From: a virus
DNA length: 64,000 nucleotides
IMG/VR virus record: IMGVR_UViG_3300029793_000467
Reading direction: 5' to 3' (one strand)
Below are positions 21,488-48,989 of the stretch, piece by piece. How positions within the stretch are numbered: position 1 is the stretch's first letter; each line of letters starts with the position of its first letter. The notes beneath the pieces were generated by a model. The model did not search any database and had not been told where the DNA came from. It was given only the letters and a program-made list of their open reading frames with translations. The position numbers and the translations under genes are program-made.

Positions 21488-21515
21488 TATGTGGACATTT
21501 CCAGTATAGCATACG
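21488..21515 (-). promoter_or_regulatory. conserved promoter element
   Basis: rc TGCTATACTGGAAATGTCCACATA. Confidence 0.55.
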
Positions 21516-29520: not shown

Positions 29521-29550
29521 TGTTATACTGGAATCGTCCACAAAAAAGGG
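29521..29550 (+). promoter_or_regulatory. conserved promoter element
   Basis: TTGCGT, an 18-nt spacer, then TGTTATACTGGAATCGTCCACA. Confidence 0.55.
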
Positions 29551-29595
29551 AGTCGCACACCTCCCCAACACGCCAGAACAAAAAGAAGAAACCAT

Positions 29596-29770
29596 GAGCA
29601 AACAGACGGAAAACAACATCAACCTGACACTGACACTCATCACAATCGTCAGCGCATTCCTCATGTGGAGACAGGATTACGGCCACGTGGTAATGGCAAT
29701 CACCAGCATCACATTCCTACTCAGCTCCACCGCACTGTTCGCTCACTTCATCAAGAAACTCGACGCCTAA
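29596..29770 (+). CDS. small membrane protein (58 aa, 2 TM)
   Basis: Promoter element 29521-29550, with a TTGCGT -35 region. Confidence 0.45.
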
Positions 29771-33718: not shown

Positions 33719-34441
33719 TCAGATTTTCAGCTCATCGATAACGGAAAGGTCAACACCGTCACCCCAATTATCGACAATCTTGCTCAGGTTCTTACGCATT
33801 CCGGCAGGAGACTGGTCGTCAACCGGACGGCCGAAATTCTTCTCCGGCGCGACCGCGTTCAGCACGGAGAACAGCAGGTTGGTCATATCCTTGCCCTGCG
33901 CGAACACCAACGTCACCTCTGCGGCAATCATGCCCGGCTCGGCTGTAGCCAACCCTTCCAACGCGGACGCGAACTCGGAGATTCGACGTTGGTTCTTCGG
34001 CTCGGTCAATGCGTCCAGCACTGCTTCCGGAGTGCTCTTCTTCGTATCGGTCAACGCCTTGGCGAGAGAAACCACACGCTCGTCATCCAACGATTTGACA
34101 AGAGGAATCAGCTTCTTGCCGAACTGTTCCTCGATGTGCGGCATGGTCTTCTCACGCGGTTTGCGGTTGGAACGGCCCTTACCTTTCCCCTTCGGCTTGT
34201 CTTCGGTTTCAGTGGACTCAGCGTCCACGTTCATGTCCTCACCATCAGCCGGTGCGGACACGTCAGCGACAGGCTCCGAACTCTCCTGATTAAGAGAATC
34301 GGATTCCGTCTGCGACTCCTCGACAGAAGACTGCTCCGGTTCAGCATAATTGTCGGAACCGTAACCATTGTCCTGCTCCGACTGCTGGTTGTTGTTGAAT
34401 CCCCAATTGGTGAAGTCTGGCATCATACCTTCTTTCGTCAT
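33719..34441 (-). CDS. hypothetical protein with acidic N-terminus and KGKGKGR basic patch
   Basis: 240 aa, and the only minus-strand gene in this plus-strand block. Confidence 0.45.
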   Translation of the reverse strand: MTKEGMMPDFTNWGFNNNQQSEQDNGYGSDNYAEPEQSSVEESQTESDSLNQESSEPVADVSAPADGEDMNVDAESTETEDKPKGKGKGRSNRKPREKTMPHIEEQFGKKLIPLVKSLDDERVVSLAKALTDTKKSTPEAVLDALTEPKNQRRISEFASALEGLATAEPGMIAAEVTLVFAQGKDMTNLLFSVLNAVAPEKNFGRPVDDQSPAGMRKNLSKIVDNWGDGVDLSVIDELKI

Positions 34442-34594
34442 ATCCAGAGAACACTCCGGTCGTACAGGCTGTTAACAGTCGGAACGAGGTGTTCTGTATT
34501 TTCAATTCACGAGTGTAACGCCCGACGGCATCCCTAAACGAGGAAAACGGGAAAAAACAATTCCCCGCGCCGCCCGCGCCGGTAGGCCAACATG

Positions 34595-35255
34595 AATAGC
34601 GGATTCAAAAAAAGAAAAGAGGACCAAAACCAAAAAGACAAAAAGATAGAAAACACTCCCCACCAAAAATCAGAAAACAAACACCATCACATCAAAAAGA
34701 AGAACCAAGAAAACCAGAAAGAAAAAAGAAAAAGAAGAACATAAGAGAAATAAGAGAAGACATCCTAAGCAAATAGAAGCAACAGAAGAACAGGACAACA
34801 CCCAGCAACATAATCAGGAAAAGAACAACAGAGAAAAGGACAACAGAAGAAGAAACGCCTACCCCTAAATCGGGAATACAACGTATGAAAACAACAGAGG
34901 CAACGCAACCATCCACAAAAGAACAGCACATCAACCCATATGACATACAGAACAGAAGAACGACATCACCAAACACCCTAAGAAACAAGAAAAGCAACAA
35001 GCCACACCATCACAAGACAAACCGAACATCAGTATCAACACGACGGCACACAACAACCACAGCACAAAACGACAACAGCGAAAAGGTCAATAGTCTCACT
35101 AACAAGGTCAACGACAATCAAAACAAGGTAACATCAATACAGGAACAGCCAATGCAATGAAAAAAAGCAACAGCAGAACCAACAAAAAAACTAAATATCA
35201 AAAAACTATAAATGCCAGAACTCGGACAAAACCGTAAACGTTCCGATGAAAACAA
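34595..35255. other. ~660-bp extremely A-rich, T-depleted non-coding tract
   Basis: The plus strand is almost devoid of T (A >> C > G >> T). Both strands yield only low-complexity ORFs. The tract lies between convergent genes. Confidence 0.6.
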
Positions 35256-35261
35256 CGGAAC

Positions 35262-36476
35262 ATGACCCATCAGGAGGCGGTCTTATTGGAAAAACGAACG
35301 ATTTCCCTGATAATCGGCTCCGGAGGGCTTCTCACAACCATCAAAAAGGCCCTTACGAGAGCCGGAAACATGCGTTGGCAGGTGCCCGCCGCAGACAATA
35401 TTCAAGCACAGGCCGACTATCTGATAAGACATCCGGTGCCCTCCGGGTTCAAAGGAATCATCTTCACCGACAGGGCTGGAAACTGGCTTCCGATAGCCAA
35501 CGCCGGATACATGGTCTACTGGTGCAACACCGGTCAGATACCGGTCGGAGCCATGGGCATGAGCGAACAGATGTTACGCATGAGCGTGGCTGATTTCGCA
35601 CGGACTTATTGGGGAATCCAGCTTGCGGACAAGCGTCTCGTAGTCGATATCCTCCAAAACAAAGTGAAGGAGACTGCGGTTCTCCTACCCATCACATCCA
35701 ACACCGGAGGAGTGGGGAAGACCACGTCCAGCCGACAGTTGGCAGACCGTGCGTCGCAAGCCGGATTGCGTGTTCTACTCATCGACGGGAACATCAGACA
35801 GTCCAGCCAACGTAGTTTTTTCGACCCGAGACAGGACAAGCCATTGCATACGATAGCCGACTGGCGACCGGGCATGCAGGTGCAGGTCGGAGCCAATCGA
35901 GGACGTGACCTTGGGGTTCCATACGACATCTGTTTCGCACCTCCAGCAGGCGTCGGAGTGGACTGGCAGATATACCGTCAGTACATCCAAGCGGCACGCC
36001 GACTGTGGGATTTCGTCGTGCTCGACCTTGACCGAATCAGCGCGGACGATTTGGATGATAGGGAGAATATCGCCAACGGTTTACTGCTTCCATACATTCA
36101 ATCGGGAGACCCTTGTCTGGTTATCGTCAAGGCTGGAAGGCAGACGCAGATAGACGCGTTGAATCTGCTGACGGCCTTGGCTGAGCATCATCTTCCGAAG
36201 GAACTCATCGGCATCAAGGACACTGTTCCGGTCGGACTGCAAGGTTACAGACGGCTCGACTATACGAGATATGGGACGTTTCTCGGAACCGAATATCAGA
36301 CGGTCGAGGCAAGCAACCATATCGCCAACGGTGATGTCAGATGGGATGACCCCGGTCTTGCTTTTGCTAGGGAGAACATTCTTAACTGGGCTTTGCCCGA
36401 CCGTGGTTTCAATCCGGAAAGATTCAATCCGAACGCTAAGAACAGTGAAGGAAAGAAAGGTCGTGGGCGTAAGTGA
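35262..36476 (+). CDS. ParA/MinD/CpaE-like P-loop ATPase with N-terminal extension
   Basis: Deviant Walker A LLPITSNTGGVGKTTSS. 404 aa. Confidence 0.55.
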   Translation: MTHQEAVLLEKRTISLIIGSGGLLTTIKKALTRAGNMRWQVPAADNIQAQADYLIRHPVPSGFKGIIFTDRAGNWLPIANAGYMVYWCNTGQIPVGAMGMSEQMLRMSVADFARTYWGIQLADKRLVVDILQNKVKETAVLLPITSNTGGVGKTTSSRQLADRASQAGLRVLLIDGNIRQSSQRSFFDPRQDKPLHTIADWRPGMQVQVGANRGRDLGVPYDICFAPPAGVGVDWQIYRQYIQAARRLWDFVVLDLDRISADDLDDRENIANGLLLPYIQSGDPCLVIVKAGRQTQIDALNLLTALAEHHLPKELIGIKDTVPVGLQGYRRLDYTRYGTFLGTEYQTVEASNHIANGDVRWDDPGLAFARENILNWALPDRGFNPERFNPNAKNSEGKKGRGRK

Positions 36477-37669
36477 CATTCGATGACCGTTTTCTTTTCG
36501 ACCCGAACGACGAGAATCTTTGGAAGACCGGAAGCATTGCCGACTGGTATAAAGGCAACGACATGTTCGAGATGGAGCATCCCGGATTGTTCGCGCAGAC
36601 CCACCCGTGGTTCGTTGCGAACAAACTGTTCGCGGAGACAATGGTGAAAGCGAACAGCGAACTCGTTTCGAGTATCCTCGGAGCATTGTTCACTTGGAAG
36701 ACATGCACGGTTGACCAACTGCGTGCGGGACTTTCCATCAAAGGCGCTCCCGCTTTCGAGCGTGACGAACCGAACCTGTATGGTGCGATGAACCGTTTAG
36801 GAATCATCAACGTCGGTTTCAGTCAGGCGGAACGATTGTACGGTCAGACCGTGAATCATGTTTGGCTTTCACCGTCGAACAGTCCACGTCTTATCAACCG
36901 TGCGATGAAATTGTACGGGATGGAAAAGTGGATGCGTGAGACGATGGCGGTTTCCTATTACGCGGGGAATCGTTTCCATGTTCGGCATAACACTTATGCG
37001 GCGCACGCGGGATTGATGTTGGCACGCGATTCACGTGTGAAATTTTCATCCGGTGATGGTTGGGGGAAATTCCGTAGCGTTGACCCACAGGCTGTTGCCG
37101 AATCGAAAGTCGGCAAGGCTTGCGCTACCGATGTGGTGACGTTGTGCCGGAACAATGTGTTGGCGGGTATCGAAATCCAAACGTCGAACAGCGAATTGGA
37201 TAAGAAGATGCAGAACTGGGCGAAGATGCTCGCCTACTCTCCGATGAAACGTCGCGGACTCATCTGCGTATGGTTGCAGATACCGAAGGCGAACGAAGGT
37301 TACGAATCGTTCAATGCGGTGATACAACGCACGCAAGGCATGACGGAAATGGTCGTGGGCAATCCGACCGTATCGCAACGAATGGGAGTCGCGGTTTGGG
37401 ATGAATGGTTCGAGCATGGAATTCCAACCGACAGGTTCGGTGAATATACGGACATGAGTGGAACACGGCGCAACATTTTCTCCGACGAGTGGGTGCAATA
37501 CACTCCGCAAGTTCGTGACGTTCGCAAAGTCAGCGAATGGGGTTGGGACGTGACGCGGGACATCATCAAAAAGGATTGGGGTTGGGACGTTTCCGGTTGG
37601 ACGATGCCGGAAGCGTACCGTGGCGGTTTCTACGGTTTCATTGGAAAGGATTGCGATGGTCTCCACTGA
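36473..37669 (+). CDS. hypothetical protein (398 aa), possibly replication-relaxation-like
   Basis: Long ORF coupled to the ATPase. His-rich motif FHVRHNTYAAHAG. Family assignment is uncertain. Confidence 0.4.
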   Translation: MTFDDRFLFDPNDENLWKTGSIADWYKGNDMFEMEHPGLFAQTHPWFVANKLFAETMVKANSELVSSILGALFTWKTCTVDQLRAGLSIKGAPAFERDEPNLYGAMNRLGIINVGFSQAERLYGQTVNHVWLSPSNSPRLINRAMKLYGMEKWMRETMAVSYYAGNRFHVRHNTYAAHAGLMLARDSRVKFSSGDGWGKFRSVDPQAVAESKVGKACATDVVTLCRNNVLAGIEIQTSNSELDKKMQNWAKMLAYSPMKRRGLICVWLQIPKANEGYESFNAVIQRTQGMTEMVVGNPTVSQRMGVAVWDEWFEHGIPTDRFGEYTDMSGTRRNIFSDEWVQYTPQVRDVRKVSEWGWDVTRDIIKKDWGWDVSGWTMPEAYRGGFYGFIGKDCDGLH

Positions 37670-38096
37670 GGAATCATTCCAACAGACACAGGACGCGTTG
37701 GATGTAGCAAGATTGGAACGTGCGCGGGCTTTGCAACAGGTTCAGACATTATGTGAGACGGGACGTAGACATTTGGTCATTCCGTTTCTGATGGCGAACA
37801 TGCAACGTGTTCCCGCATTACGGAAGATACGACTCTGGCAGTTGGATTCGATAATGTTCAACACTTCCCGGCGGATTGCGAACAAAACAATCCGCGTCAT
37901 GCGTGAAACCATCAACGATGATTCGAGTGTGAACGATGGTTACGTGACATTGGGTTGGGCGTTGGAGTCGAAGGAGAAAACCGTCCGGATGACGACGTGG
38001 CTTCTCCAATTGTCGTTACGTGAGAGGCTTTCCACTTTCCAGAAGCCGGAAGGTTTCCCATACGCGCAGTTGTATCAGCAGAGCACGGATGATTAA
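37620..38096 (+). CDS. hypothetical protein
   Basis: ORF. The start may be at MVSTEES. Confidence 0.35.
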   Translation: MAVSTVSLERIAMVSTEESFQQTQDALDVARLERARALQQVQTLCETGRRHLVIPFLMANMQRVPALRKIRLWQLDSIMFNTSRRIANKTIRVMRETINDDSSVNDGYVTLGWALESKEKTVRMTTWLLQLSLRERLSTFQKPEGFPYAQLYQQSTDD

Positions 38097-38121
38097 ACAA
38101 AAAAGGAAAGGAAGGTAAAAC

Positions 38122-40782
38122 ATGGGTAATCCGAACTGGTATCAGATAACCAGAACGTTGCAACAGTTAGACCCGGACGAGCAACGTTCGAAAGTGGAGA
38201 GCATTCCCGCCGAACTGGATGGTTGCACCCTTCTCCTCATCAAGAAGGGCGAGGAGCCGGTCAAGGAATATATTTACGGCGACGGCGAGGGAATCGTCAA
38301 CGCCGGACAGTTGGCTGGTTTTGACGCGAGACTGGTCGAAGGTGATGAGGAACCGGTGTTGCCGGATGGCGTGAACAGTGCGGCGCATCCTCTCATCCCG
38401 TTCCGTGCCCGGTTGAACTCGAAAAGCAACATGGAGAAAATGCGGACGAACTATTCCGGCGTTCGTACAAGCATCGAGAAGGTCATGCCGCCGGACAGTT
38501 ATGTGAGCGTCACGCTTCGCAATCAGGGATACTTCGAGCAGATTCGTATTCGTAATTGGATTAGCGACGAATACAATGCGGTCGAGGATTCAAGCGAACT
38601 TGCTTCGACCAACACGATGTGCGCCCGTGTGAGTTTCGGTTGCCGTCAGGTTTCGCGTAACCGACAGCTTGCGCAGAAGATTGGTCAAATCATCTGCCCG
38701 CTCATATCCAACATGTCCAGTCATGCGAGCCGTCCGAAATTCGGTTTGCTGTTCGTCAGCATGCTGTTGGAAGTGTTGTCCGTGATTTGGAGTGTGTGCG
38801 GTCTTGCAAGAGGATACGTGATGGATGGCGTGTTCCCATTGTTCCATTCCGCTTGGGGTTTCGGAATCGCGCTTCCACTGCTTGCGGTGACGTTGGTCGT
38901 GTTCCTGTTCCTCATGCTGTTGTCGTGCATTCCGTTCGTTTACATTCCGCGACCTCAGATTGCTGGTGGAGCGGTGGCGCTCATGCTTTACCTGCTGTTG
39001 GGGTTGCTTCCGCTTCCGACGTTCATTCCGATTCTTTTCGTTCCGCTTCTTGTCTTCGCGTTCATCCGTTGGAAGAATTGGACGTTGTGGGATGATATTT
39101 TCCAAACGCCACGCAGATATTATGCGATTGCGAACGACCGTGGCGCGAACGAGTCCGATAATCAGACCCGTCTTGGCGTGCGCACTCATAAGGAGCGCGT
39201 GTCGGCTTATGGTGCGCAACGTACCACGTTGATTCTTTCCCCGATTATCGTAAGTTCCGTGTTCACTCCGGTCACTCAGGGAGTGGCGATGAAACAGGAG
39301 TTGCATCCGGTTCCGGAAGTATTGTCGCATGATGGCATCTTCCTTGGGAAGGATGATACGGGACGTAACTGTTATCTCGACCCGTCGCAATTGTTCGGCG
39401 GTATCGCCATCAACGGCGAGGCCGGTTCCGGTAAGACCGTGCTCACCCATGGCATCAGCCAGTGGGCCATCAGCGCACGCGAGACCACCAGTCCGAAAAT
39501 CTGGGGACGCGACTCCCGTATCATCCATTTTTGGATGAAGGATGATACCGGTGTTAACGTGTTGGAACGTTATCGCAAACGTCACGGTTTCACCAGTCCG
39601 CAACGCGTCGTCTATTTGGCAGACCCGAACAGTGTGTGCTTGGACATGCTTGGCATGAAGGACGGGAACAATGCGATGGAGACTGCGGCGAGCGTGGCGA
39701 AGACCATGCGTTACTCGTTCGATGACGGTGATATTCTGAACGACTCGCAGAACATCATCACCCAAGCGTTGACCATCGGCGTGGCGGTTGACCGTTACGT
39801 GCAGGAGGAGCGTAAGCATAATCCCGAATCCGCGAACAAGGATTGGGAAAGCGAGATTGTGAAACGTTGCCATCAGCTCGAACAATCGTATCCGGGTGCG
39901 GAACAGTTGCGAATGCAGTTGAGTCCAATCGGATGGGCCGTCGTCGCATTATGCGGTTCCGACGGTCAGGCCGGTTCCGCGAAAGCGTTGGGTCATGTGT
40001 GCCGCGCGTTGAGCATGGAATTGAAGAGTGGCTACATGTTCGAGGAGATGACGTATGCCGCCCGTGCCGCCGAGCAATTATATGGCCGTCCGGACGCGGC
40101 TGGTCATACGGTTCGTTCCGACCGTGACATTCTCGCCAAGACGAACGCCTCGTTGAACAAGGTGAACCAGTTCCTTCCCATCGAACACATGTTCACGGCA
40201 CGTCGCGGCAAGGTGACTTGGACGAACATTCTCGACCATGCTGGCGATTATCACATTGTGCTCGCACCGCATAATGGTTATTCGTTGCCGGAACGTATGG
40301 ATAAGATTCTCGGCGGCTGGCTCATGTACCGTTTCTGGAATACGGTGTTCGCGCATTGCAAGGATTGGGACAAGGCTGGCAAGTGGACGATGCTCGTATG
40401 CGACGAGTTGAGCCTGTTGGCTAACGGCAATGACGGTATCATGCCCGCGTTGCGTGAGCAGGGTCGTTCGTTCGGTCTTCTTCTCGTGTTCGCCACCCAG
40501 TATCCGACCCAGTTGTCCGACGCGATGTTGGATTCGTTCATCGGCTATTCGACGTTCATCACATACAATACGACGATTCCGCGTATTGCCGATATGACGG
40601 CGAAACGTTTGACGAACAATGATGGTGAGGATGGTTGGCGTTCGGGCGCGGTGATGAATCTTCCACGTTATGCGGCGGCTGTTCGCACTCGAACCCAAGA
40701 ACAGTTGCAACCGACGTTCCTTGTTCATGTGAACGATTTCGATAACGGTTATCGCAATGGTGACATGGATGATGATGACTAG
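38122..40782 (+). CDS. membrane-anchored P-loop NTPase, type IV secretion ATPase-like (VirD4/VirB4/FtsK superfamily)
   Basis: 886 aa. 4-5 TM helices at residues ~230-340, then Walker A GEAGSGKT and Walker B MLVCDELS. Confidence 0.55.
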   Translation: MGNPNWYQITRTLQQLDPDEQRSKVESIPAELDGCTLLLIKKGEEPVKEYIYGDGEGIVNAGQLAGFDARLVEGDEEPVLPDGVNSAAHPLIPFRARLNSKSNMEKMRTNYSGVRTSIEKVMPPDSYVSVTLRNQGYFEQIRIRNWISDEYNAVEDSSELASTNTMCARVSFGCRQVSRNRQLAQKIGQIICPLISNMSSHASRPKFGLLFVSMLLEVLSVIWSVCGLARGYVMDGVFPLFHSAWGFGIALPLLAVTLVVFLFLMLLSCIPFVYIPRPQIAGGAVALMLYLLLGLLPLPTFIPILFVPLLVFAFIRWKNWTLWDDIFQTPRRYYAIANDRGANESDNQTRLGVRTHKERVSAYGAQRTTLILSPIIVSSVFTPVTQGVAMKQELHPVPEVLSHDGIFLGKDDTGRNCYLDPSQLFGGIAINGEAGSGKTVLTHGISQWAISARETTSPKIWGRDSRIIHFWMKDDTGVNVLERYRKRHGFTSPQRVVYLADPNSVCLDMLGMKDGNNAMETAASVAKTMRYSFDDGDILNDSQNIITQALTIGVAVDRYVQEERKHNPESANKDWESEIVKRCHQLEQSYPGAEQLRMQLSPIGWAVVALCGSDGQAGSAKALGHVCRALSMELKSGYMFEEMTYAARAAEQLYGRPDAAGHTVRSDRDILAKTNASLNKVNQFLPIEHMFTARRGKVTWTNILDHAGDYHIVLAPHNGYSLPERMDKILGGWLMYRFWNTVFAHCKDWDKAGKWTMLVCDELSLLANGNDGIMPALREQGRSFGLLLVFATQYPTQLSDAMLDSFIGYSTFITYNTTIPRIADMTAKRLTNNDGEDGWRSGAVMNLPRYAAAVRTRTQEQLQPTFLVHVNDFDNGYRNGDMDDDD

Positions 40783-40812
40783 TTTTTAGCGTTCATCATA
40801 TCGCTTTTCAGA

Positions 40813-40851
40813 ATCCGTTCGGAACTTTCAACTTCCGGACGGATTTTTTTA
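40813..40851 (+). terminator. rho-independent terminator
   Basis: ATCCGTTCGGAA..TTCCGGACGGAT stem followed by T7. Confidence 0.65.
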
Positions 40852-40948
40852 ACCTAAAAACCTCGCTATGACTGGAAACAACCGCGTAGGTTGATAGGAT
40901 GAAAAATGCAGGAGAGTTCCGTTTGGAAAACGAAAGGGAACTCAAAAA

Positions 40949-41293
40949 ATGGGTGGAACCATTACCTTGGCTGGAAGCAGCCTTGAGAGCACCTATCATA
41001 AGATGTTCGACACCATTTTGAGCAGTAGCGCGGGAACCGTGTTGACCAACATCGGTCTTGCCGCCGCAGTGCTTCTCGCATTCGGCCTTATCGTCGGTGG
41101 CATTTGCAAGGCGTTGGGACGTCAGAACAAAGTCGTGCAGATGTTCTGCCCGACCATCGGTCGTGTTCTCGTCGTCCTCGCAGTCGGATTCATTCTCGCT
41201 GGCCCGACCGTCACCATTCCGGCAATTCTTAAGTTGATTGACTGGTTCGTTGACGCGTTTGGCAGCAGTGGAAAGACCTATCTGGGAATCTGA
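40949..41293 (+). CDS. small polytopic membrane protein (pilin/VirB2-like candidate)
   Basis: 114 aa with two long hydrophobic helices. Flanked by strong terminators. Confidence 0.4.
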   Translation: MGGTITLAGSSLESTYHKMFDTILSSSAGTVLTNIGLAAAVLLAFGLIVGGICKALGRQNKVVQMFCPTIGRVLVVLAVGFILAGPTVTIPAILKLIDWFVDAFGSSGKTYLGI

Positions 41294-41306
41294 CATCCGC
41301 AGAAGG

Positions 41307-41369
41307 AAAACCGGAGTGGATATGCGAAGAGGACCTTTCCGGTTCTGTTCCCACTCCGGTTTTCTTTTA
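41307..41369 (+). terminator. terminator/attenuator-like hairpin
   Basis: 13-bp stem AAAACCGGAGTGG/CCACTCCGGTTTT followed by CTTTT. Confidence 0.45.
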
Positions 41370-41398
41370 AGAACCTTACGTACGAAAAGAGTTGAATC

Positions 41399-41821
41399 AT
41401 GAGCGATGAGGAAGACGAAGGATACAAAGGTCCCTTGCATCCGAGGTTGACGATGGACGACATCACGGAAGTGTCCGGCCCGGAGGAAATCGAACGGAAG
41501 AACACGTTCCAGATAACCAAGAACACTGAGGCCCGTTCCAAAACCGTGTTCTCCGTTATCGTCGGCGCATTGGCGGGCTTGGCTCTTTGCCTCATATTCG
41601 CCCCGTTGCTCGGATACATGTTCAGCTCGTTCTTCGTACTGTTGGGCGGAATACTGGCTCCGTTCTTCGCAGTCGGCACCATTAGAGACCGCACCCAACA
41701 GACACGGTGGAAGAGAACCTTGCAGGATATGAAGAGCCGCAAGATTGAAGGGCAGGTCTTCTACCCGAATTCCACTCAGCCGGAAAACATTATCGACCTT
41801 CAAGAAATGGAAATCCGTTGA
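41399..41821 (+). CDS. membrane protein (140 aa, 2 TM)
   Basis: ORF with hydrophobic helices. Confidence 0.4.
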   Translation: MSDEEDEGYKGPLHPRLTMDDITEVSGPEEIERKNTFQITKNTEARSKTVFSVIVGALAGLALCLIFAPLLGYMFSSFFVLLGGILAPFFAVGTIRDRTQQTRWKRTLQDMKSRKIEGQVFYPNSTQPENIIDLQEMEIR

Positions 41822-44800
41822 ATACAAAATATCGAGACCCAGTGAAACGGGCGGGTAGAAGGAACCTGCTCGTCATTCTGATGTTGTGCGTGGTCATGAC
41901 ATTGTTCGTCTTGCCGTCCAGCGTGTTCGCCGCACAGGTCAACGATTCGACCACGACGATAACATGCGCCAACGGTGGAACTGACAGTGCTACATCAGAC
42001 ATCTCTAGTTGTCTTCCTTCCGGACGTTGGGGAAACTACGTTGGGGAAATCACTTCGCGTACGGAACCGTACAGTGGCAGCGATGTCGCCGGTTGGTTCT
42101 CGAACGTCAAGCAGACCATCAGCTCGCAGACCCATATCGTCCTTCCCAACATTCTGATGCAGTTGACTCAGGTCTGCTGGTCTTCCGCATTGTCCATCAG
42201 CCAGTTCGCCGCTTCGTTCGAGCCAATGAAACAGGCTGGTGCGAACATCGACTCCGCAGTGTCCACCATGGTGACAAGTCTGATGGACGGCGGCATCCCC
42301 GCCACCATCGCAGTGCTCGGCATCGTGGCTTGGGTTGGCGCGGCTGGATTCCAAATCGGCACCGTCAAAGAGGCGAGCAAACGAATCGTCATCATGGTTC
42401 TCTGCTTCGCTTCAATCACGATGCTTGGAGCTGGAGCGGCCAAGACCGGGAAGAACGCCACAGAACCGGCGACCGGAAGCCCATGGTGGGTCGTGCAGAC
42501 AATCAACAACACCATCAACAAGCTTTCGGTCAACCTCGACCTTGACGGTATGGCCGACAGTGATAAAAACATGATGTCCTACCATCATGCGGCGAACGGT
42601 GCGAAAACCAATTGTCAGGATTACCTGTACTTCATGCATCAGGCATATGACGAACAGGCGAAGTCCAACGGCAATCAGGATACAAGCAACGTCACCAAGG
42701 CCATCAACCGTATTTGGGAGGAGACCTCCCTTCGCTCGTTCGTGACCATGCAGTACGGAAACCCGCAGACCACCGGAACATCCTCGTTCCGTATCGCGGA
42801 AAACGCCCGGCAAGGTTACTGCCACGTGTTGGAGATGAAAGCCAACACGAACACGACCATCCAGAAGGATTTGACCAACAAGGCCATGGCGTTGCACATC
42901 AGCGACCAGCGAGCCAAATGGCTGTTCTCCGTGGACGGTTGGGTAGACCCGCGTAATCCTTACTTCACCGACAAGCCGTTGGAAAGGGAGAACGCGACAT
43001 ATCTCAGCCGTGCGGGCGTGTTCTGGGAAACCTGTGGCACGAAACGCAATCAGGAAATCTACGCGCGAGCCGGATGGGCGACACTCATCAACAATCTCGG
43101 TGACACAGGAACCAAGAACATCAAGAACGGCAGTACGAAAGTACGCGTCAAAATTGACGACTTGGACAATGTGAAACCGGCCAACGGTGGCAAAGGCGTG
43201 ATGGACGCGAAACAGAACGGCAGCGAAGACGAAACCATCCAACAGACCACTTCGGTCTGCCAGACGATTCTCAAACAGGGTTCCGTAATCTTCTCCCGTT
43301 CCACCGATATCAACAAGGAGGATGACGGAACATATAAAGACCAGCAGAACGACACCAACTGGGGCGACTCCGCCACGGTCGGATGGCGTTTCGACGTGCC
43401 GAACGTTTCCGGAACTTGGAGTGAGGCGAATCTTCGTGACGCTCAGGATGATTCCACGGTCACGGGCGGTGCGAAGAAAACCATCGACTACATGTATGGC
43501 AACAACAACGTCGATACGTTGGGTGCTTGCGGAACACTTATCGGAGGCATCGTCAATCTCGTGGTCTGGGGATTGTTGAGCCTTGTTCTAATACTGACGA
43601 AGCTCATGCTGATAATGATGGCGTTGTTCCTCGTGGTCACGTTCCTTGTCCAAGCGTTCCCGATTGGCGAGAAGCCGAAGACGGCGTTGAAGAACTGGGC
43701 GACGTACACCTGCCAGTTGAGTATGGTAGGAGCGTTGTACGGTGCGCTCGGCGCTCTCGCAACATTCATTTGTGGCCTGACGTTGAAGTTCACCTCTGCC
43801 AGCAGTGGTTCGTTCACCTACCAGTTGATTGCGGGATTGAGTCCGGTGTTGGCTCTCGCCGCAATCGGCATGTTCTGTTCGAAAGTGTTGAAGTGTGGTA
43901 ATCCGTTCAGCGTCAACGCTCTCATGGGAATGGCGGGTGGAACCGCAATGGCGTCCGGTCTTCGCAAGGGAATGCACATGATTGGACAGTACCGTATGAT
44001 TCGCGCCATGCGTGGCGGATTCCGTCGTGGCGGCAATGGTGTCGGACGTTTGTCCACGAACGGTACCGGCGCTGGCATGGCCCATAACGGAGCACGTCAA
44101 AGCGCGACCGTCCTGAGCAAGATGAGCCGCGCGCAACAGGATTCGTTGAGTCAGGGCGATAGGAATCTGATGAATCGTAACGCCAAGGAGTTCGAGGCGA
44201 TTCAGACGCGTGGACGCGGAAGCAAGAACTGGGCACGAATGGACAAGAGCACGGTGAGAGGAAGTCTTGCCGGTACGAAACTCCATTTTGAGGATTCCAC
44301 GGGCAAGTTCAAGGGACGGTTGAACGAAGCCGTTTCCAAGTTCCATGGAGAGGACAATACGGAGGCGTTCGCCCATAGTATCGCTCAACGTCACCCGGGC
44401 ATGTCCCTCAACGATGTGCAACGCAAAGCACAAAGGATGAACCATCTGAACAATGCCGGACGCAAACTTCAAGGCGCGGCAAGAGTCGCCGGAGCCGGAG
44501 CCGCAATGGCCGGTGCCGGTCTCGCTTTCGCCGCACGAGCCGCGAAGAGCGCTCCTTTGCGTAACGTAGCCGCACGCGGAGCGAAGGTCGCCGCGAAAGC
44601 CGCTGTCGCAGGAGCTTTGTTCTCCAATCCGATTACCGCACCGTTGGGATTGATTGCCGCAGGAAAGCTAGCTACCGACCGTAACCTCCATCATGGCCTA
44701 GCGGTGGGTGCGGGAGCTGCGATGGACAAAATCCGCGACATCAGGAACGCTGCTCCCGGCAGTATGAGGAAACGCGACCAGTGGCGTCGCGACGTGTTGG

Positions 44801-45849
44801 GCATGGCTAATGGTGACGCTCCGTTGTCGTCTCCGTTCTCCGGCACCGGTGACGGTGGTTCCGCCGATGGTGACAGTCCTATGCCTTCCCCGACGGCTCC
44901 GACTCCGAATGCCCCGACCCAACCCGGTGGTGTCGGTGGCGCGTCTCCGCTTCCGACTGACGGTCAGACCGAGACGATTCCGACTGACGGTCAGACGGAA
45001 ACGATTCCGGTGGACACTCCAACTGAATCGGTTCCAGCCGACGCTCAAGGACAGGCTCCGGTGTTGACTGAACAGTCCGCGTTCAATCAGGTTCGTGAGG
45101 GAATGATGGCCGACTTCGTGGATAACCAGCACATGTCTCAAGAGGATGCGGAACAGGCTTTCCAAGAAGCCGTGGCCTCCGGTGAAGTCGATGATTCTGT
45201 CCAAGCGTATATGAGCCAAAACAATCAATCTCCTATCGAGAATGTGACGGCTCAACCTGAGATGAATGCCAATCAGCCGGTGTACAACACTGAGACAGGT
45301 GAGATTGTTGGTGAGACCCTACCCTCCGGAACGATGGACGCCGCCGTGTCCTCCGCCTCCACTTGGCAGAAGGCAACCGACAATGCGACTCCGATGCCTG
45401 AATCGGTGAACAATTCACTGCAACAGGCGTACATGCGCGAGAATCCGGTACAGCAGTCTCCGGAGGAGCATTTGCGGATGGCGCAGGAGGAGTGGACTAG
45501 GACGACTGGTCTTCCGAGCGATATGATGCCTGCGAGTGCGGAACGTGCCATGAATCCGAATGGAATTCAGCCGAGTAGAAAATTCACGGTTGATTCCGGT
45601 CGGACGCAACAGCAGGGTTCGGTACAGGCGCAAGCTCCGCGACAGCAGTCTCAACCGCAGCCACAAGCTCAGGTGAGGCAGCAGCCGTCGGTTCGAATGC
45701 AACCGCCAACCACACCGTCACCGACCGTCAAACAGCCAGTGGACGCCAACCCGTCAAACCTGACAGGTTTCCCCTCCGTAGGCAATCTTCACATGAAGAA
45801 ACCGCCGACCGGAGGACAGCCGACACCCAAACCGCCGTTCATGAAGTGA
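41818..45849 (+). CDS. giant polytopic membrane protein (1343 aa) with Ala-rich and Pro/Gln-rich C-terminal tail; VirB6/TrbL-like candidate
   Basis: Signal/TM segment at the N-terminus, a cluster of TM helices at ~560-700, and PT/Q-rich low complexity at the C-terminus. Confidence 0.5.
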   Translation: MNTKYRDPVKRAGRRNLLVILMLCVVMTLFVLPSSVFAAQVNDSTTTITCANGGTDSATSDISSCLPSGRWGNYVGEITSRTEPYSGSDVAGWFSNVKQTISSQTHIVLPNILMQLTQVCWSSALSISQFAASFEPMKQAGANIDSAVSTMVTSLMDGGIPATIAVLGIVAWVGAAGFQIGTVKEASKRIVIMVLCFASITMLGAGAAKTGKNATEPATGSPWWVVQTINNTINKLSVNLDLDGMADSDKNMMSYHHAANGAKTNCQDYLYFMHQAYDEQAKSNGNQDTSNVTKAINRIWEETSLRSFVTMQYGNPQTTGTSSFRIAENARQGYCHVLEMKANTNTTIQKDLTNKAMALHISDQRAKWLFSVDGWVDPRNPYFTDKPLERENATYLSRAGVFWETCGTKRNQEIYARAGWATLINNLGDTGTKNIKNGSTKVRVKIDDLDNVKPANGGKGVMDAKQNGSEDETIQQTTSVCQTILKQGSVIFSRSTDINKEDDGTYKDQQNDTNWGDSATVGWRFDVPNVSGTWSEANLRDAQDDSTVTGGAKKTIDYMYGNNNVDTLGACGTLIGGIVNLVVWGLLSLVLILTKLMLIMMALFLVVTFLVQAFPIGEKPKTALKNWATYTCQLSMVGALYGALGALATFICGLTLKFTSASSGSFTYQLIAGLSPVLALAAIGMFCSKVLKCGNPFSVNALMGMAGGTAMASGLRKGMHMIGQYRMIRAMRGGFRRGGNGVGRLSTNGTGAGMAHNGARQSATVLSKMSRAQQDSLSQGDRNLMNRNAKEFEAIQTRGRGSKNWARMDKSTVRGSLAGTKLHFEDSTGKFKGRLNEAVSKFHGEDNTEAFAHSIAQRHPGMSLNDVQRKAQRMNHLNNAGRKLQGAARVAGAGAAMAGAGLAFAARAAKSAPLRNVAARGAKVAAKAAVAGALFSNPITAPLGLIAAGKLATDRNLHHGLAVGAGAAMDKIRDIRNAAPGSMRKRDQWRRDVLGMANGDAPLSSPFSGTGDGGSADGDSPMPSPTAPTPNAPTQPGGVGGASPLPTDGQTETIPTDGQTETIPVDTPTESVPADAQGQAPVLTEQSAFNQVREGMMADFVDNQHMSQEDAEQAFQEAVASGEVDDSVQAYMSQNNQSPIENVTAQPEMNANQPVYNTETGEIVGETLPSGTMDAAVSSASTWQKATDNATPMPESVNNSLQQAYMRENPVQQSPEEHLRMAQEEWTRTTGLPSDMMPASAERAMNPNGIQPSRKFTVDSGRTQQQGSVQAQAPRQQSQPQPQAQVRQQPSVRMQPPTTPSPTVKQPVDANPSNLTGFPSVGNLHMKKPPTGGQPTPKPPFMK

Positions 45850-45864
45850 CGTCGGTTTGACCAT

Positions 45865-45909
45865 CCGGCGTCGAATGTTTTGAGCATCTTCCACAGCATT
45901 CGACGCCGG
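45865..45909 (+). terminator. hairpin terminator
   Basis: Perfect 13-bp stem CCGGCGTCGAATG/CATTCGACGCCGG. Confidence 0.45.
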
Positions 45910-45951
45910 TTCCCCTTTCGAAAAAACTTCCAACGTCAAGGAGATTAGAAA

Positions 45952-46305
45952 ATGGAAGAGGTAGGAAACCAAGCCGCTGACACTGCGGGACGAACGTTGG
46001 GTGACGTGCTCACCGTGTTCTTCTCTTGGGTGTTCACGCCGACGGGCGCAATCCTCACTTTGTTGATGATTATTATTTGCGCCGGTAGTGTCGTGTTCGC
46101 AATCTTGCAGAAAAGCACCCGCGCGTTGATGACCGCGTTGACCATCTGCGCGTTCCTGTTGTTCGTGTGGATTATCACCGGTGTCTTGGAGGTCATGGGT
46201 TTGCCCGTGCGTGAATGGATGAAGGATATCGCGGCCCAGATGCCTGATATCGGTTCACTGTTCATGGAGTTCCTTCGCAAACTGGTGTTCACAGCCACCG
46301 AATGA
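45952..46305 (+). CDS. membrane protein (117 aa)
   Basis: Three hydrophobic helices. Confidence 0.45.
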   Translation: MEEVGNQAADTAGRTLGDVLTVFFSWVFTPTGAILTLLMIIICAGSVVFAILQKSTRALMTALTICAFLLFVWIITGVLEVMGLPVREWMKDIAAQMPDIGSLFMEFLRKLVFTATE

Positions 46306-46542
46306 TTTTTGTTCGGCTATAAAAACGAAAGAAGGCCGTATCCGTTTCATCGCGGACGCGGCTTTCTGTTTTTCTGTTCCGCCTGTAAACTTGTACGCCG
46401 TTCAACTGTTTTACTGGAATGTTTCTCCGAACGGTTTTCTGGTTCGGCGTGCCGACTTTTCGCCGTTGTTATCATCGAAACAAAAAGACATACCCCCACC
46501 ATGATTCCGTCCACACCGGAAACGAAAAAAGGAAACCAGAAC

Positions 46543-47205
46543 ATGAGAGTCAAAAACCATACGGTCATCATCACCGTCGCAATCATCAAAGGCGGTTCAG
46601 GAAAAACAACCACATCAATGGCATTGGCCGAACTATTGCACAAACGCGGGGAACAAGTCACAGTCTTGGACTCCGACAACACGGGCGGCGCGACCATGTG
46701 GGAAATGTACGTCGAACAGGAAAACCGCAGACGCAGACAGGACAATCCGGACGCGGAACCATACACGCTCGGATTCCCTGTAGTGCAAACCAACGAAGCC
46801 GTATTGAACAATCCGGAACTCATCCGCGAAAAATATTCAGGCTGGGTCATCATCGACACCCCACCGTCCGACGCCGGAGTGGTGCAGGCGGCGATAAACG
46901 CGGGCGACGTGGTGATAATCCCATGCCAGCCATCCGTATCCGATTTGACCCACGCGGGACGCACATACGCGGCGGCACGCAACGGCATCGTCCTGTTGAC
47001 ACGCGTGAAGCCGAGAACGAAACTCGCCCGGAACAGCATCAGCGAACTGGATGAGGAAGGCATCGCACGGTTCGAAACCGTCATCACGGAACGTGAAGCC
47101 GTCAAGAACATGTACGGCACGACGGAAATCGACAACAAGGAGTATTCCAGCGTCGTGCAGGAACTCATCGACTATCTGTCTGAAATCAATCTGGTGGAAG
47201 AATAA
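46543..47205 (+). CDS. parA: ParA-family partition ATPase
   Basis: Walker A IKGGSGKTTT. 220 aa. AAGGAAAC RBS. Confidence 0.8.
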   Translation: MRVKNHTVIITVAIIKGGSGKTTTSMALAELLHKRGEQVTVLDSDNTGGATMWEMYVEQENRRRRQDNPDAEPYTLGFPVVQTNEAVLNNPELIREKYSGWVIIDTPPSDAGVVQAAINAGDVVIIPCQPSVSDLTHAGRTYAAARNGIVLLTRVKPRTKLARNSISELDEEGIARFETVITEREAVKNMYGTTEIDNKEYSSVVQELIDYLSEINLVEE

Positions 47206-47235
47206 AAACAGGAGCAGGGGAGTAAGTAGGCAATC

Positions 47236-47691
47236 ATGGTCAAGAACATCAAACGCAACGCTTTCGCAACCGGAATGCAGGACAAGCGTGACATGCGCCC
47301 ATTGGAATCACCGGAAAACATTAGCGAACCGAACACGGAGCAGGAACCGACACAGGCCGTTCCTGAAACGCGGGAACCGTCAGACCAGTCAGTCCAAACG
47401 TCCGCCGACATGCATGCCCAAACGCTCACGGAGGAAGAAGCCGACCGTCGGGCACGGCTCATCACCGACATAACCCATCCTGAAACACCGGCACCATCCG
47501 AAACGCATCAGCCGCCGAAAGAGAAAAGAATCGGCAGCAACGTCACCGTCGAAAACTGGCGTGCGTGGAAGATGAGAAGCATCGAATACGGGACGAAGCA
47601 GGCTGTATTGTTGAATGCCGCGATGGATTACTGCTTCCAGCAGGGGCACTTCGACCAGTCGCTCATCGACAAGTATGAGCAGAAGGATTAG
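47236..47691 (+). CDS. putative centromere-binding partition protein (ParG/RHH-like C-terminus)
   Basis: Lies immediately downstream of parA. The N-terminus is disordered and the C-terminal ~45 aa are RHH-like. Confidence 0.4.
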   Translation: MVKNIKRNAFATGMQDKRDMRPLESPENISEPNTEQEPTQAVPETREPSDQSVQTSADMHAQTLTEEEADRRARLITDITHPETPAPSETHQPPKEKRIGSNVTVENWRAWKMRSIEYGTKQAVLLNAAMDYCFQQGHFDQSLIDKYEQKD

Positions 47692-48979: not shown

Positions 48980-48989
48980 TTTCGACCTG

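Follow-up and report, generated by a model that had tools for sequence, protein, structure and literature searches.

The A-rich, almost T-free tract at positions 34595–35255 lies in a large intergenic region of the window (the whole 64,000-nucleotide stretch analyzed here), between two genes transcribed away from it on either side. On the left, the minus-strand gene (33719–34426) has a product specific to the family, in which an acidic, disordered N-terminus and a basic patch are combined with a helical domain at the C-terminus; the start of this gene is probably ATG at 34426 or 34423, rather than at 34441, and structure searches with its product gave no identification. The original prediction had called this gene (given as 33719–34441) convergent, which is incorrect: being encoded on the minus strand, it is divergent. 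On the right, the plus-strand gene at 35262–36476 encodes a TadZ/CpaE-like two-domain ATPase of the ParA/MinD fold, with matches to P-loop families of Pfam and NCBIfam. Its AlphaFold model (pLDDT, 86) matches a TadZ homologue (PDB entry ID, 3fkq) over the full length and also resembles the MinD, ParA, and FleN folds, so that the predicted structure agrees with the earlier naming of a CpaE-like ATPase at this position. Judging from the N-termini of homologues, its true start is likely TTG at 35286, with a Shine–Dalgarno sequence AGGAGG at 35272–35277. The ATPase gene opens a run of 10 co-directional genes (35262–47691) forming a ~12-kb operon. Sequence-family searches on the remaining operon proteins yielded no identity, and a scan of a genome collection with the ParA-like protein alignment returned a sole, unrelated match in Klebsiella, owing to overly generic patterns.

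The replicon is related to pMP7017, a conjugative megaplasmid of Bifidobacterium, and is not a phage: its relatives at the protein level are Bifidobacterium megaplasmids, and a search of 50,697 phage genomes gave no match. IMG/VR nevertheless files 23 near-identical loci as viral, and virus-detection pipelines classify pMP7017-type plasmids as phages.

Tripartite layout of the intergenic region

The intergenic region consists of a conserved module with a GC-rich box, a variable A-rich spacer, and a conserved promoter-proximal module. The first module (34442–34520), beside the minus-strand gene, shows an identity of 0.81–0.98 per 20-nt window to strains that are ~15% diverged in their genes. 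It contains the plus-oriented TGTATTTTCAATTCAC (~34495–34510), a shortened look-alike of the extended −10 promoter motif of the plasmid; the resemblance to the regulon motif TGnTATACTGGAAnTGTTCACA was judged by eye, and the score with a position weight matrix (PWM) was not significant. An inverted repeat, GGGAA-N7-TTCCC (34549–34565), which read on the minus strand is similar to a weak terminator, is situated just 5′ of the GC box. This box (34563–34582, plus strand) is composed of two or three copies of CCCGCGCC-type direct repeats and marks the 5′ boundary of the tract throughout the family: of 12 orthologous intergenic regions, 9 contain CCCGCGC (0.7 expected) and 7 contain CCCGCGCC (0.17 expected). 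Its position is constant, ~100–130 nt from the minus-strand gene and directly upstream of the A-rich tract. In a comparison of 12 lineages, a conserved word, AGCGGA(A/T/C)(C/T)C (34597–34606, plus strand), follows 10–25 nt past the GC box, and in many lineages constitutes the 3′ arm of an inverted repeat, GTTCC-N11-GGAAC.

The spacer proper (34607–35075, plus strand) contains 55% A and 7% T, and is GA-rich in its 5′ part and CA-rich in its 3′ part. It includes a 24-nt homopurine block, AGAAAGAAAAAAGAAAAAGAAGAA (34715–34738, plus strand), exceeding the expectation from composition (p ~0.01), and a semi-conserved island (34858–34900, plus strand) that repeats the promoter-proximal hairpin region in degenerate form, as seen in the alignment of ATGAAAACAACAGA with ATGAAAACAACGGA at 35246–35259 (repeat family D6). 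The third module (35076–35261, plus strand) has an identity of 0.85–1.0 to diverged strains, higher than that of the adjacent coding sequence. Three direct repeats with 21-nt spacing, AAGGTCAA, AAGGTCAA, and AAGGTAAC (at 35083, 35104, and 35125, respectively), are found in it together with a −10-like hexamer, TAACAT (35129–35134), and an inverted repeat, GTTCCG-N10-CGGAAC (35240–35261). The elements GGTAAYATCAA...GAACAG and TTCCG-N10-11-CGGAA recur in pMP7017, in a Bifidobacterium longum plasmid, and in lineages L027–L029. The last ~185 nt (35076–35261) of the interval originally delineated thus do not belong to the variable tract, but constitute a separate, strongly conserved module.

Composition and non-coding nature of the tract

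On the plus strand, the 661 bases of 34595–35255 comprise 354 A, 155 C, 97 G, and 55 T (53.6, 23.4, 14.7, and 8.3%, respectively). When base skew was computed in 660-nt windows, the tract gave an AT skew of 0.74, the most extreme value in the 64-kb window (mean, 0.008; sd, 0.20; next most extreme, |0.48|), confirming the strand asymmetry that had drawn attention to this locus. In 200-nt windows, the skew reaches 0.82 and the GC content falls to 0.34–0.45, as compared with ~0.53 outside, and a maximal-segment scan places the tract at 34607–35205. The tract is thus 62% AT within a plasmid of 53% GC from a high-GC host; the original description of a GC-rich replicon was somewhat overstated, and its base order (A >> C > G) applies to the window, but within the family only A >> T is universal. 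The sole other segment of the window above the threshold (20753–20964) scored 36 versus 175 for the tract and is coding, and no other intergenic region of the window has a similar composition. In the complete pMP7017 sequence (190,178 bp), the orthologous tract is likewise the top-scoring A-rich/T-poor segment. The idea that many such tracts precede genes was rejected on inspection of the short A-rich/T-poor segments at 20753–20964 and 29525–29660, which are low-complexity coding sequence or a short untranslated region (UTR) with small open reading frames.

The four-fold degenerate sites of the window genes have a quite different composition (A, 0.15; C, 0.38; G, 0.29; T, 0.18), and those of the downstream operon have more T than A. 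With A ~ T and 67% GC at these sites, background or transcription-coupled mutation bias was rejected as the origin of the asymmetry, and the composition of the tract appears to be selected, because it is far from that of the four-fold sites of the replicon. We also dropped the reading of the tract as promoter-free AT-rich DNA, since TAnnnT hexamers occur on the T-rich strand at close to the frequency calculated from composition.

The tract is non-coding. Its longest open reading frames are 91 and 102 amino acids, every plus-strand frame contains 5–9 stops, and one frame is open for 128 codons between a TAG and a TGA. Among 27 close relatives, the segment 34540–35075 carries 54 distinct indels, of which only 7 are multiples of three, whereas in the same comparison the ParA-like coding sequence has none and the minus-strand coding sequence has three, all of them multiples of three. 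Downstream of both candidate ATG codons (34592 and 34885), frame-shifting indels are found in near-identical strains. A low-complexity coding region, also one with recoded stops, is rejected by this indel pattern and the frameshifts, and the original prediction that neither strand encodes a plausible protein stands. Gene callers place spurious open reading frames into the tract, for example B7017_RS00305 in the RefSeq record of pMP7017. The covariance models of Rfam 15 gave no match at the gathering score in the whole window, and none at E ≤ 1 in 34350–35400. A template or variable repeat of a diversity-generating retroelement was also rejected, as the window contains no second copy of the tract and the substitutions show no A-specific pattern; the variation includes G>A, C>T, and C>A together with abundant indels, and is not restricted to A positions.

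Conservation of composition and polarity in the plasmid family

An equivalent tract precedes the orthologous ATPase gene in pMP7017 (positions 52866–53219 on the minus strand of the record), in a B. longum megaplasmid, and in eight metagenomic lineages. Its place and polarity are thereby kept in 10 of 12 lineages; among the most distant ones, two (L033 and L034) have a weak tract or none. In all 10 tract-bearing lineages, with protein identities from 100% down to ~47%, the orthologous TadZ-like gene has the A-rich strand as its sense strand. The length varies from ~160 to 600 bp between lineages and differs by tens of bp even among near-identical strains. The tract is 83–99.8% identical among strains with 98.5–99.9% identical flanks, and its divergence is ~3 times that of the neighboring genes (83% identity where genes are ~99% identical, and 55–62% where they are 81–87% identical), corresponding to a turnover at about the neutral rate. 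Because the tract diverges faster and accumulates many indels, its composition persists while its sequence does not, which answers the question, raised with the original prediction, of whether related replicons share composition or sequence. Selection appears to act on composition and polarity (A ~50% and T <9%, counted on the strand that is sense for the downstream gene) and not on sequence. Among singleton variants in the tract, T was created seven times and removed once, a weak hint at purifying selection against T.

Other traits of the tract are less uniform. In 9 of 12 lineages, the 3′ half contains 27–38% C and 11–21% G (27–33% C and 11–15% G in the window itself), but the bias of C over G is not universal, because G ~ C in several lineages (L029–L032). 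The succession of a GA-rich and a CA-rich part is found in 6 of 12 lineages, and in six of the nine lineages with a C-rich 3′ half, but not in the window and its closest relatives, the 5′ half has at least as much G as C. The purine content is 66–76% across lineages (~70% overall), with 21–27% C throughout. Of the 12 orthologous regions, 8 contain the words AACAGGA/ACAGGAA (2.3 expected), and GCAAC is ~3-fold overrepresented (39 versus 13). Weak tandem repeats have periods of 8–19 nt, and the top periodicities (6–22 bp) are lineage-specific. Intrinsically curved DNA was rejected, as the A-tracts lack helical phasing (maximum z, −0.6 to 2.3 at periods of 10–11.5 bp in eight lineages).

Possible roles of the tract

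Since base composition, not sequence, is kept across the family, the tract is probably a functional structure-free leader or spacer. The reading that we favor, with a probability of roughly 40%, is that of a long 5′ leader, depleted of U and free of structure, which acts in cis and may be a platform for Rho loading or for insulation. Rightward transcription would make the tract the very long 5′ leader of the 12-kb TadZ/CpaE-like operon. An RNA of A, C, and some G would be unable to pair with itself, and would offer almost no start codons and no U-tract terminators. RNase E cleavage motifs are reported to contain U, and few are present in the predicted tract RNA. The CA-rich, G-poor 3′ half has the make-up of a Rho-loading (rut) site, from which we infer that the leader may hold the operon under transcription-level control, either by premature Rho-type termination or by insulation; this control could be modulated by proteins binding to the conserved flanking elements, namely the GC box and the inverted repeats of the TTCC...GGAA type.

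Several observations are consistent with such a leader. The predicted folding energy of the plus-sense RNA is −0.03 kcal/mol per nt, as compared with a window mean of −0.32 (sd, 0.04), making it the least structured of 272 tiles of 470 nt in the window, and the antisense RNA folds ~5 times more strongly. Downstream of 22 copies of the plasmid's promoter motif, the first 25 nt have a tract-like composition (A, 0.48; T, 0.12), and the 40 nt upstream are T-rich. In one lineage (L030), a strong copy of this motif (score, 16.9) is located upstream of the tract and points towards it. The excess of C over G in 80-nt segments of the tract reaches 0.25 (top ~0.2% of the window), and the tract as a predicted RNA presents an untranslated, unstructured stretch of at least ~80 nt with C > G, as in rut sites. 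This rut-like feature is not specific, however, because many other loci in the window reach an equal excess of C over G. Among the roles suggested originally, the long non-coding RNA, taken as a transcribed leader of this kind, would fit best, given the sense polarity, minimal predicted structure, and UTR-like composition.

Other features of the region are less easily reconciled with a leader. The conserved −10-like hexamer of the third module (TAACAT/TAATAT) could be the real operon promoter, which would place the tract upstream of the transcription start and leave it untranscribed. Scanning for sigma-70 promoters gave nothing usable in the intergenic region of the window and nothing recognizable at the 5′ boundary of the tract, and no significant copy of the plasmid's own motif was found in this intergenic region with the PWM. 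The stem sequence of the inverted repeat in the third module is invariant across lineages without covariation, so that an RNA hairpin and a DNA operator are indistinguishable at this site, and the inverted repeats may be operators. The non-universal excess of C over G, and the weak or absent tract in L033 and L034, also argue against the leader. Published RNA-seq papers on pMP7017 do not mention the region, and the orthologous genes p0061–p0063 (assigned by our own matching of old with RefSeq locus tags) do not appear in the supplementary tables of genes active in mid-log culture.

The proposed leader shares features with several known systems. Rut sites are C-rich, G-poor, unstructured RNA, and Rho-dependent attenuators are found in the leaders of Salmonella mgtA and corA and of E. 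coli rho and tna. Like these leaders, the tract is untranslated, precedes the first gene of a long operon, is predicted to be nearly structureless as RNA, and has C > G over >150 nt of its 3′ half in 9 of 12 lineages; unlike them, it is several times longer than needed and dominated by A (~50%) instead of C, and its defining conserved trait is the depletion of U rather than the non-universal excess of C. A- or CA-rich translational enhancers and standby sites include the (CAA)n omega leader of TMV and the CA-multimer enhancers of E. coli. The tract is similarly A/C-rich, G-poor, and structureless, and the ribosome-binding region downstream of it has a small hairpin (35240–35261) just before it, but those enhancers span tens of nt beside the start codon, whereas here a ~470-nt spacer and a 185-nt conserved module precede the Shine–Dalgarno sequence. 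The 5′ UTRs of the pMP7017-family regulon, whose promoter motif has been described (PMC10832533), belong to the same replicon family and have the same sense-strand composition (A, 0.48; T, 0.12). They are, however, only 20–40 nt long and follow a strong, recognizable promoter, whereas the tract is 15–25 times longer, and the TadZ-like operon is outside this regulon, with no copy of the motif between 29.5 and 52.3 kb.

A rather unlikely, more general view is that of a composition-coded cis element, whose function would be set solely by one strand being T/U-free and structure-free, regardless of sequence, and which would gate the expression of the conjugation/Tad-like apparatus of Bifidobacterium megaplasmids. 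Such an element could be a runway for Rho or another RNA/single-stranded DNA translocase, or a switch based on a purine-RNA R-loop.

We regard as similarly unlikely that the tract is an untranscribed DNA spacer between two operator/promoter modules, which would keep the operon repressed through looping, spreading, or coating by a silencer. The tract would then be an AT-rich, signal-poor linker between the GC box with the 5′ inverted repeat and the promoter-proximal repeats with their inverted repeat. Conserved elements resembling protein-binding sites are indeed present on both flanks (the CCCGCGCC repeats and GTTCC-N11-GGAAC on the 5′ side, and the three AAGGTCAA-type repeats and TTCCG-N10-CGGAA on the 3′ side). 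The conserved −10-like hexamer downstream of the tract, its high AT content in a GC-richer plasmid and host, and the lack of the pMP7017 operon orthologues among genes listed as active in mid-log phase, consistent with repression, point in the same direction. Proteins binding double-stranded DNA and looping require no T-free strand, yet the polarity is conserved in every tract-bearing lineage. Without phasing of A-tracts there is no intrinsic curvature, and a loop of fixed geometry is not compatible with a length that varies both between lineages (~160–600 bp) and, by tens of bp, among near-identical strains. A silencer of the nucleoid-protein type also leaves the conserved strand polarity unexplained. 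Like nucleation sites of the xenogeneic silencers H-NS and Lsr2, the tract is locally rich in AT (62%), whereas its replicon and host are richer in GC, and it precedes horizontally mobile functions; those proteins, however, give no reason for asymmetry and favor flexible DNA with TpA steps, whereas the tract is nearly T-free on one strand and has no phased A-tracts.

A homopurine switch is improbable, in which the GA-rich 5′ part would stall or gate transcription, or prime DNA synthesis, through an unusually stable hybrid of purine RNA and pyrimidine DNA or an intramolecular triplex (H-DNA). Purine-rich RNA on a pyrimidine template forms the most stable class of hybrid, and 7 of 11 lineages carry a homopurine run of 23–27 nt within the initial third of the tract (p, 0.008–0.03 versus shuffles), along with the 5′ halves noted above, with at least as much G as C, in six of nine lineages. 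Strand asymmetry, a GA-rich 5′ portion, and a purine block in most lineages are also shared with H-DNA- or R-loop-forming tracts such as (GAA)n. In contrast to those, the tract is only ~70% purine, has no regular repeat unit, and is interrupted by C instead of T, the C residues breaking up triplex-forming runs throughout. Four lineages have no long run, and the A-rich hybrids would lack the G clusters that usually nucleate R-loops.

Equally improbable, in our estimate, is functionless low-complexity DNA, made and kept by slippage of A-rich seeds and inherited by descent. Frequent 1–2-nt indels in A runs, larger duplications and deletions, weak tandem repeats (8–19 nt) with lineage-specific periodicities, the internal partial duplication of the third module, and the near-neutral substitution rate are all features that slippage would leave. 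Nevertheless, 10 of 12 lineages (to ~47% protein identity) keep the tract in place and in the same polarity despite repeated replacement of its sequence, its composition differs widely from the one at four-fold sites, T remains <9% even though the mutational input favors new T (7 versus 1), and 6 of 12 lineages share the GA-then-CA organization. In addition, bacterial replicons tend to delete useless DNA.

It is very improbable that the tract gives rise to a non-coding RNA acting in trans, such as a sponge that would titrate a protein binding A-rich RNA. The evidence for plus-strand transcription would apply equally to this RNA, and AACAGGA/ACAGGAA and GCAAC are enriched, but such enrichment can also arise from internal duplication and slippage. 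There is no Rfam match even at E = 1, no repeated structured units or hairpins of the CsrB/RsmZ type, and no terminator between the tract and the downstream gene; GGA motifs number ~6 (counted by eye) versus ~7 expected from composition. To our knowledge, neither Hfq nor CsrA has been described in Bifidobacterium.

The tract is unlikely to be an origin of transfer (oriT), and this role, or that of a single-strand initiation or leading-region element in conjugation as proposed originally, is the least probable of all: the large divergent intergenic region heading presumed secretion/transfer genes and the GC-rich box beside inverted repeats are as in oriT regions of conjugative plasmids, and the uniqueness of the tract in the plasmid and an asymmetry that would yield one structure-free and one T/G-rich single strand would be in line with such a role, but no recognizable relaxase is near (MOB typing gave "non-mobilizable", with none in the family), the FtsK/SpoIIIE-type proteins and the dispensable RepA of pMP7017 are ~45 kb away and its ssb, Lar, and methyltransferase genes, typical of leading regions, 80–110 kb away, and, unlike the short, sequence-conserved oriTs known, the bulk of the tract turns over freely between conserved flanks, with no conserved nic-like core found. 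The main vegetative origin was also rejected, as the tract contains no iterons and the origin of pMP7017 is elsewhere. The functional origin of that plasmid has been mapped experimentally next to repB at ~118–120 kb, with the terminus at ~37 kb (PMC8313286), and its orthologous tract (52.9–53.2 kb) is away from it. The 2-kb GC-skew profile shows no polarity switch at the tract, and the local dip in cumulative GC skew is due to the tract's own composition.

A literature search for a described A-rich/T-free plasmid element found nothing relevant, and the element has probably not been described before. The tract stands right at the head of the presumed transfer operon of pMP7017-type megaplasmids, which are the sole known native conjugative plasmids of Bifidobacterium and have been reported from ~10% of metagenome samples of the human gut, the majority of them taken from infants and mothers (PMC10832533). 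It is a clean natural case of selection on composition and polarity without conservation of sequence. If the composition-coded reading is true, it would represent a class of cis-elements defined by composition and polarity and invisible to alignment and covariance searches; such elements may be widespread but unnoticed, because standard motif, covariance, and alignment screens miss them. Should the tract indeed function as a leader or spacer, it would provide a handle to switch on conjugation, of use in developing genetic tools for a probiotic genus that is hard to engineer.

Composition, conservation, and replicon of the tract

The plus strand of 34595–35255 contains 354 A, 155 C, 97 G, and 55 T (53.6, 23.4, 14.7, and 8.3%, respectively), in a window where each base is close to 25%. 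The AT skew, computed in 660-nt windows, peaks at the tract (0.74; window-wide mean, 0.008; sd, 0.20; next extreme, |0.48|), and 200-nt windows over it show skew up to 0.82 and GC down to 0.34–0.45. A maximal-segment scan of the window delimited the tract as 34607–35205 (score, 175). Judged from the skew peak and the scan score, the A-rich, T-poor asymmetry noted in the original prediction is real and far beyond chance, and its composition is absent from all other intergenic regions of the window. The replicon, which had been described as GC-rich, is only moderately and not strongly so (53% GC). The one other above-threshold segment (20753–20964, minus strand; score, 36) and the second-ranked segment of the megaplasmid pMP7017 (176061–176315) are both coding, specifying low-complexity K/T/P/E/N-rich linkers of family-specific proteins. 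A strongly T-rich stretch (38700–39100; AT skew down to −0.55) lies within a plus-strand 886-aa ATPase ORF, is overlapped by a 431-aa antisense ORF, and probably encodes a hydrophobic segment.

IMG/VR holds 23 near-identical loci on 110–217-kb contigs classed as viral, and nucleotide-level similarity was found neither to 50,697 phage genomes nor to PLSDB plasmids. The TadZ-like protein encoded 3′ of the tract is 57% identical to ‘CobQ’ of Bifidobacterium breve pMP7017 and of five B. longum megaplasmids, and has further homologues in Bifidobacterium sp. SO1 and B. callitrichidarum. This protein-level homology, together with the occurrence in gut metagenomes, assigns the window to a pMP7017-family megaplasmid lineage of the human gut. 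The nearest cultured relatives of the viral-classed contigs are conjugative megaplasmids of Bifidobacterium, and the viral label is either a misclassification or a phage–plasmid question. A minus-strand gene (47800–48669) encoding a protein with a RepA_C domain (E = 2e-10) and the adjoining 568-nt divergent intergenic region (48670–49237) form a candidate replication module of the plasmid lineage, ~12.5 kb from the tract.

Orthologous regions were compared in pMP7017, one B. longum plasmid, and eight metagenomic/genomic lineages (12 lineages counting the window), with TadZ-like proteins sharing 78% to 45% identity with that of the window. An A-rich, T-poor tract (A, 46–55%; T, 1.4–9%; length, 157–600 nt) precedes the TadZ-like gene in 10 of the 12, as exemplified by a 510-nt tract with 2.9% T in lineage L031, and the A-rich strand is the sense strand of this gene in every tract-bearing lineage. 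Among the two most distant lineages, L033 has a weak but still T-poor tract and L034 has none. Comparison with related replicons, as the original prediction had proposed, thus shows composition to be kept and sequence not. Several lineages have G and C at about the same level; the trait shared throughout is therefore A >> T, not A+C against G+T. In the complete pMP7017 (190,178 bp), the orthologous tract (52866–53219) is the single strongest such segment, and the sole other one lies inside a CDS, indicating one tract per plasmid.

Anatomy and non-coding status of the intergenic region

The gene on the left (33719–34441), previously regarded as convergent, is a minus-strand gene reading away from the tract. 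Its product is a family-specific protein, and its start is probably the ATG at 34426/34423, because the 34441 ATG is absent from diverged strains. Adjacent to it, module 1 (34442–34520) retains 81–98% identity even to strains with genes ~15% diverged, and is followed by a small inverted repeat (34549–34565) and directly by a GC box made up of direct repeats of the CCCGCGCC type (34563–34582). The word CCCGCGC occurs in 9 of the 12 orthologous regions (0.7 expected), always ~100–130 nt from the minus-strand gene, and AGCGGAAC-like words, often part of a GTTCC-N11-GGAAC inverted repeat, occur 10–25 nt past the box. The window allele lacks ~110 nt at 34540–34600 that most relatives (L002, L003, L005, etc.) possess, flanked there by GCGCCGGTAG(G/T) in two direct copies. 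The allele appears to have arisen by deletion between these repeats, losing one GTTCC-N11-GGAAC inverted repeat in the process.

The variable A-rich spacer (34607–35075), CA-rich in its 3′ part, includes a homopurine block (34715–34738) and a semi-conserved island (34858–34900), a degenerate duplicate of the promoter-proximal hairpin region. Module 3 (35076–35261) is 85–100% identical to diverged strains, above the adjacent CDS, and contains three AAGGTCAA/AAGGTAAC repeats spaced by exactly 21 nt, a −10-like TAACAT, and the inverted repeat GTTCCG-N10-CGGAAC. The likely start of the TadZ-like gene is TTG 35286, rather than the first ATG, with a plus-strand Shine-Dalgarno sequence (AGGAGG) at 35272–35277. 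This gene, the first of ten co-directional genes (35262–47691), encodes a TadZ/CpaE-like two-domain ParA/MinD-fold ATPase, whose AlphaFold model (pLDDT, 86) matches 3fkq, a TadZ homologue, along its whole length, and also MinD, ParA, and FleN.

The earlier view that neither strand encodes a plausible protein holds. Each plus-strand frame of the tract contains 5–9 stop codons, and the longest ORFs are 91 aa (plus) and 102 aa (minus). Among 27 distinct close relatives from IMG/VR and gut metagenomes (flanking genes 98.4–100% identical to the window), 34540–35075 carries 54 distinct indels, only 7 in multiples of three; the TadZ-like CDS carries none and the minus-strand CDS three, all in frame. 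Frame-shifting indels in near-identical strains follow both candidate start codons inside the tract. A coding reading is excluded by the stops, short ORFs, and out-of-frame indels; a diversity-generating retroelement (DGR) reading was also excluded. Rfam gave no match, either at gathering score or with the threshold relaxed to E ≤ 1, and the search for tRNAs was likewise negative. In pMP7017, RefSeq places a ‘hypothetical protein’ CDS, B7017_RS00305 (53034–53309; 4351–4626 of locus L024), antisense within the orthologous tract, very likely a spurious gene call.

Divergence of the tract

Where flanking genes are ~99% identical, tracts are 83–99.8% identical over aligned columns, falling to 55–62% where genes are 81–87% identical, close to the ~37% that chance would give for this composition. 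As estimated from these alignments, the tract has diverged roughly three times as much as the genes, about as expected of unconstrained sites. One mosaic locus (L012, IMGVR_UViG_3300029509_000119) is 98.4% identical to the window in the TadZ-like gene, 83.5% in the minus-strand gene, and 61% in the tract, indicating a recombination breakpoint at or beside the tract and an imported share in its allele diversity. Four-fold degenerate sites of well-supported window genes (A, 0.15; C, 0.38; G, 0.29; T, 0.18) show that the tract composition is not a local mutational or transcription-linked equilibrium, and T exceeds A in the downstream operon. Seven singleton variants, all C>T, create T and one removes it; these small numbers suggest that mutation drives T up while something holds it low, and transversion counts are unreliable in this low-complexity alignment.

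A putative leader and its alternatives

Any explanation has to cover one site per plasmid with fixed position before, and polarity relative to, the TadZ-like operon, a composition kept despite drift in sequence and length, and conserved protein-site-like modules on either side. The fixed polarity argues for a single-stranded reading (RNA or ssDNA) rather than double-strand binding, and A-tracts show no helical phasing in the eight lineages checked. We tentatively propose, at a probability of about 0.4, that the tract is a long structure-free leader through which the operon is controlled at the level of transcription (Rho-type attenuation or insulation). Folded as RNA, the sense strand of the tract (−0.03 kcal/mol per nt) is the least structured among 272 tiles of 470 nt from both window strands (mean, −0.32; sd, 0.04; antisense tract, −0.14), and z = +0.9 against shuffles for the 801-nt region indicates no structure beyond that of composition.

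The RNA reading is supported by the polarity matching the downstream gene in every lineage, and by the 5′ UTRs of the plasmid's own mapped promoters, which share its A-rich, T-poor make-up. The family-specific extended −10 promoter motif TnTGnTATACTGGAAnTGTTCACA, described for pMP7017 by Dineen et al. as a 34-bp motif (PMC10832533), occurs 28 times in the window (2.6 expected; e.g., 1151–1169, 15008–15026, and 21490–21508 on the minus strand, and 29524–29542, 52266–52284, and 62546–62564 on the plus strand). Every copy points along its downstream gene, with T-rich sequence upstream (T, 0.35) and A-rich, T-poor 5′ UTRs downstream (A, 0.48; T, 0.12). No copy lies between 29.5 and 52.3 kb, placing the TadZ-like operon outside that regulon. 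In lineage L030, a strong regulon promoter 5′ of the tract is directed towards it, further supporting the RNA reading.

A U-free, A-dominated putative RNA would not pair with itself, would offer almost no start codons, and would contain no U-tract terminators. Mycobacterial RNase E favours a U-containing cleavage context, which the RNA would largely lack. The CA-rich, G-poor 3′ half resembles a rut site; its C minus G (0.25 over 80 nt) is in the top ~0.2% of the window, a value reached at many other places. Quarter-by-quarter composition shows a recurring internal order: the 3′ half has C > G in 9 of 12 lineages, six of which have G ≥ C in the 5′ half, the window and its closest relatives not among them. 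Modulation of the putative leader could come from factors binding the GC box and the TTCC...GGAA inverted repeats. The leader model has weak points: promoter scans found no clear promoter at the 5′ edge of the tract in the window; the conserved −10-like hexamer of module 3 could be the true promoter; C > G is not universal; and the published transcriptome studies of pMP7017 are silent on the tract region and do not list the orthologous genes (p0061–p0063, as we matched old to RefSeq locus tags) as active.

That the tract is DNA left untranscribed, either spacing operator modules or serving as a silencer platform, is unlikely: such a role fits the sites on both sides and an operon that appears silent, but leaves strand polarity and free length variation unexplained. 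A homopurine R-loop or triplex switch, improbable on balance, draws on a conserved pure purine run of 23–27 nt, longer than composition predicts, which 7 of 11 lineages carry in the first third of the tract. Weak tandem repeats and abundant 1–2-nt indels indicate that slippage contributes to length change; that the whole tract is slippage-generated junk is similarly improbable, being hard to square with its retention, polarity, and composition far from neutral. A trans-acting sponge RNA is very unlikely. The oriT or single-strand initiation role raised initially is also very unlikely: there is no relaxase nearby, and in pMP7017 the distance is ~45 kb to the FtsK-like proteins and RepA, and 80–110 kb to ssb, Lar, and the methyltransferases. 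Experiments place pMP7017 oriV beside repB (PMC8313286), which rules out a main vegetative origin.

The two dedicated pMP7017 papers do not mention the element, and our literature search found no comparable ones. The element is real, and as a feature of base composition it is conserved across a family of plasmids that is common in the human gut. The most economical reading is a long regulatory leader or spacer of unusual form, and we claim no new category; coding by composition and polarity, if demonstrated, would raise the interest of the element.
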